A stretch of DNA of 36,393 nt from a virus (taxonomy: Duplodnaviria > Heunggongvirae > Uroviricota > Caudoviricetes). The translations under genes and the position numbers were made by a program. This document shows positions 25,861-26,799 of the stretch, piece by piece (position 1 is the stretch's first letter; the number at the start of each line of letters is the position of its first letter). The stretch spans positions 1 through 36,393 of IMG/VR virus record IMGVR_UViG_2534682108_000013; one strand, written 5' to 3'. Below the pieces are notes generated by a model. That model did not search any database and was not told the origin of the DNA. It saw only the letters and a list, made by a program, of their open reading frames with translations.

Positions 25861-26777
25861 TCGAATACTTCGGAGCCGTTTTGCAGCAGATCGTTAAAGT
25901 CACCCTGTGCAGGCCAGCGGACGGATACAGTCTCCAGATCGTTCTTCGCGTGCAGGTTGGCAGCAGCACATTCAAATGCAGCAGCATGACCGGCTGCGTT
26001 TGAGTCAGCATCAGCAAAAATAATCAGGTTCTTTACCCCGGCAGGAACACGGAACTTCTTCATGAAAGCGGTGTTCATCGTTGCCCAGGTGTGACATTTG
26101 GTTATCTGATGGCAGGCCAGCGCAGTTTCGATACCTTCAGCGATACCCAGCGTGGAGGATACGGGGAACATGCGGATAGCAACTGATTTAGCAAACTCCA
26201 GATAACTATCTTCCTGCAGCTTCATCATCTTCTTGGCTGCGCCGCCAGTTTGCGCTTTCTTGTCCCCGTCAAGCAGGGTGCGGTGCAGGTAGCACAGCTC
26301 GCCTTTATCGTCCGTCGCCAGCGCGTAAATAGCCTGGAGATTTTTACCGTCTACCGGCTGTTTGTCGCAGAATCTGACGCTTTCGGCTGGAAGGGTATTA
26401 AGCCCTCTCCCCTTCAGGTAACTGTCTGCACTGGTCCCACGCAGCGGGATGAGCTTTGCAAATTTACGGCTTACCTTCTCACGCTGCTGCGCCAGCGATG
26501 TGCGTACCGGGTTTACACTGGTACGGTCTGAGGTGTATTCATTGCCGATCAGCCTGTCTATCTCTGAGGCAAGAACCTTAAATTCTTTCCCTGTTTTTGC
26601 TGTCAGCAGCCCAGCCATCGCCTGAACCACACACGCAGATGTATGACCCGGTACCGTTTTTATTGTCACAGCGGAATTTCCCCTTACGACCACACAGAGG
26701 ACATTCCCCTTTAAGGTGGTTTTTCCCGGTAATTCCAGGAAGACCGTAGTGTTTGTATATCTCAGCCCAGCGACCAA
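25830..26777 (-). CDS. DNA primase, Toprim-domain portion (downstream frame of a frameshifted primase gene)
   Basis: IAEGIETALA and IIFADADSNAAG Toprim-like motifs; N-terminal ~60 aa of this ORF overlap the zinc-ribbon ORF in another frame. Confidence 0.7.
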   Translation of the reverse strand: MVAGLRYTNTTVFLELPGKTTLKGNVLCVVVRGNSAVTIKTVPGHTSACVVQAMAGLLTAKTGKEFKVLASEIDRLIGNEYTSDRTSVNPVRTSLAQQREKVSRKFAKLIPLRGTSADSYLKGRGLNTLPAESVRFCDKQPVDGKNLQAIYALATDDKGELCYLHRTLLDGDKKAQTGGAAKKMMKLQEDSYLEFAKSVAIRMFPVSSTLGIAEGIETALACHQITKCHTWATMNTAFMKKFRVPAGVKNLIIFADADSNAAGHAAAFECAAANLHAKNDLETVSVRWPAQGDFNDLLQNGSEVFEWVFHRGMKQ

Positions 26778-26799
26778 TTGCGGCTTGTTTGGTATTCAT
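26578..26799 (-). CDS. Primase zinc-ribbon N-terminal fragment (upstream frame)
   Basis: CPLCGRKGKFRCDNKNGTGSYICVCGSGDGW zinc-binding motif; ATG overlaps the helicase stop (ATGA); frame lost just after GDGW. Confidence 0.6.
   Translation of the reverse strand: MNTKQAAIGRWAEIYKHYGLPGITGKNHLKGECPLCGRKGKFRCDNKNGTGSYICVCGSGDGWAADSKNRERI

Follow-up and report, generated by a model that had tools for sequence, protein, structure and literature searches.

RESULTS

A primase gene divided between two reading frames

The window analyzed here is the whole 36,393-nt stretch of DNA deposited as IMG/VR record IMGVR_UViG_2534682108_000013, and it appears to represent a lambdoid-regulated, contractile-tailed E. 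coli prophage situated near tRNA-Arg, in the yfdC-dsdC region. The features of its primase locus are as follows:

26796..28325, minus strand: SF2 (DEAD/ResIII/Helicase_C) replicative helicase, by Pfam, and phrog_16 DNA helicase, by PHROG
25830..26799, minus strand: primase pseudogene, whole, 970 nt (phrog_510 DNA primase match; fold matches 1NUI and 1DDE)
26578..26799, minus strand: 5' fragment of the primase, an ORF of 73 aa comprising 64 native residues and nine out-of-frame residues (ADSKNRERI), then TAA
26608..26611, minus strand: deletion site at codons 64/65 (GCG CTG), where one GC unit is gone from an ancestral GCGC, as placed by homologue alignment and a BLAST gap
25830..26618, minus strand: 3' fragment of the primase, MAG plus native residues 65–323, 262 aa, with DUF7146 and Toprim_3
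25216..25860, minus strand: ninG, 3' of the primase, with an annotated GTG start at 25833

The original prediction had recognized a primase whose zinc-binding and Toprim portions lie in different frames, and Pfam searches bore this arrangement out. Zn_Ribbon_Prim (PF08273), a family first defined on primase-helicases, matched residues 30–63 of the first ORF (E = 5e-13), and DUF7146 and Toprim_3 each matched the second frame at E ~1e-17 (1.6e-17 for Toprim_3). The first ORF, which runs on the minus strand from 26799 to 26578, encodes a 73-aa product beginning MNTKQ and ending CPLCGRKGKFRCDNKNGTGSYICVCGSGDGWAADSKNRERI; its full translation is MNTKQAAIGRWAEIYKHYGLPGITGKNHLKGECPLCGRKGKFRCDNKNGTGSYICVCGSGDGWAADSKNRERI, terminated by the TAA at 26580..26578, and it keeps all four zinc ligands (C33/C36/C55/C57). 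The second frame is open on the minus strand from 26777 to 25830. It reads QAMAGLLTAKTGKEF before entering DUF7146 and Toprim_3, and contains CVVQAMAGLLTAKTGKEFKVLASEIDRLIGNEY on its way through to a C-terminal HRGMKQ and stop.

The surrounding genes are tightly packed. The helicase stop codon overlaps the primase start (ATGA, with the ATG at 26799), and the GTG start of ninG (25833) shares bases with the primase stop (GTGA), which makes translational coupling of ninG to the 3' frame of the primase probable. Overlapping stop and start codons continue 3' of the primase through ninG, an MT-A70 methylase, and the Q antiterminator. An intact primase would thus be translated from an overlapping operon of helicase, primase, ninG, methylase, and Q.

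Homologous primases are encoded by a single ORF

Intact homologues of the primase are 972 nt long and encode 323 aa. A megablast search with the primase gene returned one phage (Klebsiella phage ST13-OXA48phi12.2) and six complete E. coli genomes, the best match being the chromosome of E. coli O157:H16 strain Res13-Lact-PEA12-26 (NZ_CP062876). At all seven loci the gene is annotated as one 972-nt CDS, variously named DNA primase, DUF7146 domain-containing protein, or toprim domain-containing protein, and the outgroups with a single 972-nt ORF include the Klebsiella phage and E. coli W409, 118UI, and 100416. The 120 best protein clusters share 60–95% identity and span many genera of Enterobacterales; 117 of them are 309–328 aa long and contain all three Pfam domains. 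Among viral genomes, each of the 80 best IMG/VR loci—a quality-ranked set that is biased to intact copies—holds one uninterrupted ORF of 315–335 codons with a GDG[WM]xLL motif. At least 24 contigs, representing three different prophage backgrounds, also encode the identical intact primase.

These comparisons address the possibility, raised with the original prediction as one that would overturn it, that each of the two domains has its own gene in homologues. None of the seven annotated loci and none of the 80 IMG/VR loci is split, and we likewise found no case among them of a conserved two-frame arrangement of the kind known from prfB, dnaX, and IS3 transposases. Because homologues encode a single ORF, the locus is not a conserved recoding site. 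The zinc-binding and catalytic domains share one polypeptide in every homologue examined; in the window they lie in different frames, and the gene is therefore a pseudogene of the DnaG/T7 gp4-type family, not a working member of it.

Two candidate counterexamples were considered and set aside. Many short cluster members suggested a natural split, but the 103-aa entries are C-terminal fragments of NinG and most of the short primase entries are partial genes at contig ends. Entry P0011 (72 aa, ending GDGWAWRQSEPDE) resembled a second frameshift at the same codon; its DNA is instead a junction to REP-like chromosomal sequence at the ends of two short metagenome contigs. On these ENA contigs (L093, 1130–1195; L094, 779–844), a Klebsiella-like primase allele halts after GDGWA, within 3 nt of the deletion site in the window, and continues into REP-like DNA (GCCGGATAAGGCG...CGCCATCCGGC). 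This junction probably reflects either the edge of a deletion in a prophage remnant or a chimeric assembly, not a frameshift.

The frame change is a derived 2-nt deletion

Alignment with five intact homologues showed the window primase to be exactly 2 nt short, the ancestral TGGGCGCTGCTG having become TGGGCTGCTG. In codons, GGC TGG GCG CTG CTG ACA (G W A L L T) now reads GGC TGG GCT GCT GAC A... BLAST places the gap at window position 26609 against 27155–27156 of the sibling locus L007 (NZ_CP062876), in which the primase gene is otherwise identical across the whole 972 nt, the two extra bases being the only difference. Since the ancestral sequence is GCGC, exact placement of the deletion is ambiguous within 26608–26611. 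Four more distant alleles, 80–84% identical, all retain the two bases in the alignment, and the window allele is therefore derived.

The lesion had been described beforehand as a 1-nt deletion producing a pseudogene, located around 26620..26640 in a stretch free of homopolymers or slippery runs. The pseudogene part of that description stands, given that homologues have a single ORF and that the allele is derived; the size is 2 nt, and alignment and BLAST both move the site to 26608–26611, which is 10–30 nt farther downstream in the direction of the gene. The remark about sequence context is correct for the site, although the ancestral sequence is a minimal (GC)2 dinucleotide repeat. Because one unit of that repeat was lost, replication slippage is the simplest candidate mechanism.

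The steps that we propose follow from this geometry. One GC unit of GCGC would have been dropped at codons 64/65, most simply by replication slippage, and translation from the native start would now stop after 73 residues. The resulting peptide would hold the four zinc ligands but lack the two helices needed to complete the N-terminal domain, as well as the entire catalytic domain. The catalytic part would be stranded in the other frame behind a poor ribosome-binding site and, if made at all, would be missing the zinc-binding domain, on which template-directed primer synthesis by DnaG-type primases depends. The predicted consequence is a prophage unable to prime its own replication.

The deleted allele recurs in separately deposited assemblies

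A sequencing or assembly error in a genome whose primase is truly intact could produce the same picture, and the original prediction had offered this as an alternative. Two observations fit it: the closest complete genome carries the intact allele, and the exact deleted junction was not found in a collection of species-representative genomes. The latter scan is uninformative, however, because that collection holds one genome per species and the lineage of the window is not a species representative.

Public assemblies speak strongly against an error. By exact-sequence look-up, the 73-aa product is present on four public contigs and the 262-aa downstream product on the same number. The deleted junction, and not the intact one, occurs in NJLL01000058.1 (GCA_002466935.1), JH953811.1 (GCA_000304135.2, E. 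coli 3006), and the Logan assembly of SRR10054168, which match the window at 100% identity over 19.8, 20.6, and 6.8 kb, respectively. These datasets were deposited and assembled separately, in different years and with different pipelines; we take their independence from their differing accessions and assemblers. The E. coli 3006 deposit also includes a 266-aa variant of the downstream product, with a start four codons earlier (EKI38124.1), that contains QAMAGLLTAK, a peptide exclusive to the deleted allele. In that deposit the downstream part is labelled "hypothetical protein" and the zinc-ribbon part has no gene call.

The nature of the lost bases points the same way, as they are heteropolymeric (GC) and do not resemble a miscall of homopolymer length. 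Given three datasets from different pipelines and a heteropolymeric 2-nt loss, a sequencing error is very unlikely, and we reject it. The same assemblies also carry two amber SNPs found elsewhere in the window (described below), and so represent a genuine clonal lineage.

The break falls within the N-terminal domain of a DnaG-type primase

The intact 323-aa primase matches PHROG 510, "DNA primase" (phrog_510), at E = 1e-118. A sequence search of the PDB with the same protein gave no match at E ≤ 1, and assignment to a family thus called for structure prediction and a fold search. We built an AlphaFold2 model on 32 homologues (mean pLDDT 81.5), in which zinc-ribbon strands at residues 31–60 are followed by helices at 62–70 and 74–84, a disordered linker at 89–100, and an alpha/beta domain at 102–323. 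Each of the 35 best Foldseek matches of this model in the PDB is either a DnaG-type primase or one of the related T7 gp4/Twinkle primase-helicases, among them the T7 gp4 primase fragment 1NUI, the DnaG cores 1DDE, 3B39, and 5VAZ, Twinkle, and T4 gp61.

The family's hallmark residues are in place. C33, C36, C55, and C57 are invariant in the 32 homologues, as expected of an N-terminal Cys zinc ribbon, and the Toprim glutamate and DxD positions (E222/E225 and D264/D266) are invariant in the alignment. Directly after the break lie L65, which is near-invariant in the family alignment, and L66, which is invariant. In the predicted structure the break falls inside the conserved helix 62–70 of the N-terminal domain and not in linker 89–100, and the 73-aa peptide is therefore an incomplete domain.

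Residual primase function is improbable

Could the two pieces still work? The deletion places an ATG (26618) in frame with the catalytic part, making MAG plus native residues 65–323 readable, and the first ORF retains the whole Pfam zinc-ribbon match with all four Cys ligands. Its stop lies ~36 nt downstream of ATG 26618, so termination-reinitiation is conceivable. A zinc-ribbon peptide and a separately started Toprim protein might then cooperate in trans as a two-piece primase; the reference list of a study of T7 gp4 (PMC2910064) cites Corn et al. 2005 for cooperation in trans between the ZBD and RPD of DnaG primases.

We consider such a functional split highly improbable. No split homologue exists among the clusters and IMG/VR loci examined, and the cut lies in helix 62–70 of the N-terminal domain, outside the linker at 89–100. 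The Shine-Dalgarno duplex at ATG 26618 is weak (–3.2 kcal/mol, against –6 to –12 kcal/mol at the real starts of the operon) and abuts the ATG, making expression of the 262-aa fragment doubtful. A promoter and terminator scan of 25600–28500 gave nothing suggestive of an internal promoter at the primase break, and an Rfam scan of the whole window found no element. Furthermore, the allele is limited to one clonal lineage that also bears nonsense mutations in terL and cro, and there is therefore no sign of selection maintaining phage function. As for the catalytic fragment by itself, the form of T7 gp4 that lacks the zinc-binding domain, the natural 56-kDa gene 4 protein, does not carry out template-directed primer synthesis (PMC2910064).

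Recoding offers a second route to a working enzyme. A programmed +1 frameshift or transcriptional slippage on an A5 run (AGC AAA AAC) could restore a full-length primase: if tRNA-Lys slipped by +1 on A AAA A, 12 nt past the lesion and ahead of the TAA, the product would be ...GDGWAADSK-TGKEF..., which departs from the native primase at only a few residues, and a rare AGG codon comes next. We give this even less credence than cooperation between two fragments. The two-frame arrangement occurs in none of the seven annotated and none of the 80 viral loci; the A5 run and AGG are unchanged in intact alleles, where they lie in a different frame, and are therefore not evolved signals; and near-invariant L65 and invariant L66 would both be substituted in the restored protein. 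A run of five A's is generally too short to slip efficiently. In the primase overlap, where a +1 shift is needed, a search for a slippery motif with a stimulator found only the A5 run and AGG, with no prfB-like CUU UGA and no Shine-Dalgarno stimulator.

Taken together, the chance that the split primase is not dead, whether through a 73-aa peptide and a reinitiated 262-aa fragment acting in trans or through rare +1 slippage on the A5 run, appears very small. Were it so, the prophage would keep low-level priming from a two-piece or near-native DnaG-type primase.

The prophage carries further lesions absent from a close sibling

The whole 36.4-kb window aligns to the prophage of E. coli O157:H16 (NZ_CP062876) located between yfdC and tRNA-Arg/dsdC, at 99.98% identity. 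Seven differences separate the two, namely five SNPs together with the 2-nt deletion and a 9-nt tandem repeat that is five units shorter in the window. A literature search on O157:H16 prophages found no paper. Two of the SNPs create amber codons:

18479..20224, minus strand: large terminase gene (terL) with an amber codon (TGG to TAG, W351*) at 19174..19172, identified by comparison with the sibling and a homologue
29633..29875, minus strand: Cro-like HTH gene with an amber codon (TGG to TAG, W66*) at 29680..29678, identified by comparison with the sibling and homologues

W351* divides terL into ORFs of 351 and 230 codons. The sibling and a distant homologue from E. coli SX45 have Trp at this position, and the amber is also present in E. 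coli 3006 and NJLL01000058.1. The Cro-like gene is divergent from a LexA-like repressor gene (29975–30685), and W66* removes a conserved C-terminal W..WPEL segment. This tail is kept in the Cro of phage mEp043 and in a Mannheimia phage homologue, both with Trp at the site; the "Cro" of the Klebsiella phage, initially considered as a comparator, proved to be an unrelated protein, and these two were used in its place. Both ambers are derived relative to outgroups.

Other damage is older. The contigs of E. coli 3006 and NJLL01 (L006 and L008, positions 1–60) run ~60 nt into an IS3-family element and then stop, in the region of the window end at 36393. The same insertion is present in the sibling (L007, 36942 onward), where it interrupts a DndB-like/DGQHR-domain gene; being common to both lineages, it predates their split. 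The tail-fibre (gp53-like) gene is annotated as C-terminally truncated in the sibling (L007, 3342–3659), and the window has no difference there (~2841–3158), making this truncation part of the older damage to the prophage.

Several additional features of these prophages were noted in passing. In the complete sibling genome, an IS66 element lies further along, beyond the IS3. The tandem repeat is a perfect 9-nt repeat (TGCCTGCTC, 9.3 copies) at 14818–14901, in a small hypothetical gene of the head region; the five extra units of the sibling could mean that copy number truly varies or that a short-read assembly collapsed the repeat. In the window, an intergenic SNP at 15062, upstream of the major capsid gene, gives rise to a perfect GC-rich hairpin (GCGGCCAGAAGGCCGC); the sibling has GAGGCC...GGCCGC there. 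The early-left region holds a RelA/SpoT-domain gene (31788–32903 region; L006, 3552–4667), a ParB-like gene, DUF2303/YfdQ, and a DndB-like gene, which may be accessory or defence cargo.

Neutral decay or selected inactivation

Three of the seven differences from the sibling are truncating changes (in the cro-like gene, the primase, and terL), and all three affect lytic-cycle functions. Nonsense changes make up two of 4–5 SNPs, where ~3–4% of coding SNPs would be expected; under a simple mutational model this gives P ~0.006–0.011, a post hoc figure from a tiny sample. The excess hints that inactivation may have been favored and not just tolerated. The lesion would be the same in that case and the cause of its fixation different: host selection disarming the prophage through knock-outs of cro, primase, and terL, in place of neutral decay. 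We regard selection as possible, though the less probable of the two. The numbers are tiny and the test post hoc, and both the tail-fibre truncation and the IS3 insertion were present in the common ancestor, so that selection on the phage had probably weakened beforehand and induction may by then have been less lethal.

DISCUSSION

Our analysis indicates that, very probably, a real, inherited, and derived 2-nt deletion has made a DnaG/T7 gp4-type primase a pseudogene in a decaying prophage. The analysis demonstrates the lesion, its derived state relative to outgroups, its reproducibility across assemblies, the family to which the protein belongs, and where the break lies in the predicted structure, and the same element bears further inactivating lesions, as expected of a pseudogene in a defective prophage. 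Loss of primase activity would follow from the sequence of the broken gene. By analogy with T7 gp4 lacking its zinc-binding domain, we consider it reasonable to infer that the prophage is probably replication-defective, and the primase is not its sole defect: the ambers in terL and the cro-like gene and the truncated tail fibre are also present. The primase frameshift is thus one of at least three recent truncating events superimposed on older damage.

The phenomenon is ordinary prophage decay; a mildly notable aspect is that three knock-outs lie among only seven differences from the sibling. In annotation, a single frameshifted primase pseudogene should take the place of the two ORFs, and the prophage should be treated as defective. 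The strain pair captures the onset of prophage inactivation in a clean natural setting, and could help to decide between selection and neutrality as the cause of such knock-outs.

Comparison with known systems

The window family resembles the T7 gp4 primase domain (1NUI) and bacterial DnaG (1DDE, 3B39) in its Cys4 zinc ribbon, flexible linker, and Toprim-fold RNA-polymerase domain, but shares only about 15% sequence identity with them. Unlike T7 gp4, the primase is not fused to an SF4 helicase and is paired with a separate upstream SF2 DEAD/ResIII helicase; unlike both T7 gp4 and DnaG, its gene is broken. The 56-kDa T7 gene 4 protein offers a second parallel, as it comprises a catalytic domain without the zinc ribbon, just as the 262-aa frame of the window would give. 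The short T7 form, however, arises from a conserved in-frame internal start and is made beside the full-length protein, whereas in the window no full-length protein is possible, and the internal ATG owes its frame to the deletion and follows a weak ribosome-binding site.

The direct orthologues are the phrog_510 prophage primases of Enterobacterales (WP_195686551.1; QBP27557.1 of Klebsiella phage ST13-OXA48phi12.2), at 82–99.8% DNA identity. They share the helicase-primase-ninG-methylase-Q gene order with the window, and all are intact 323-aa ORFs, whereas the window allele carries the 2-nt deletion. Finally, the element is like the defective (cryptic) prophages of E. coli, which decay by point mutation, IS insertion, and deletion: its essential lytic genes have suffered a frameshift and nonsense changes, and it also has an IS3 insertion and a truncated tail fibre. 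Nothing essential sets it apart from other cryptic E. coli prophages; it is a young case, with a sibling in which the three genes are intact.
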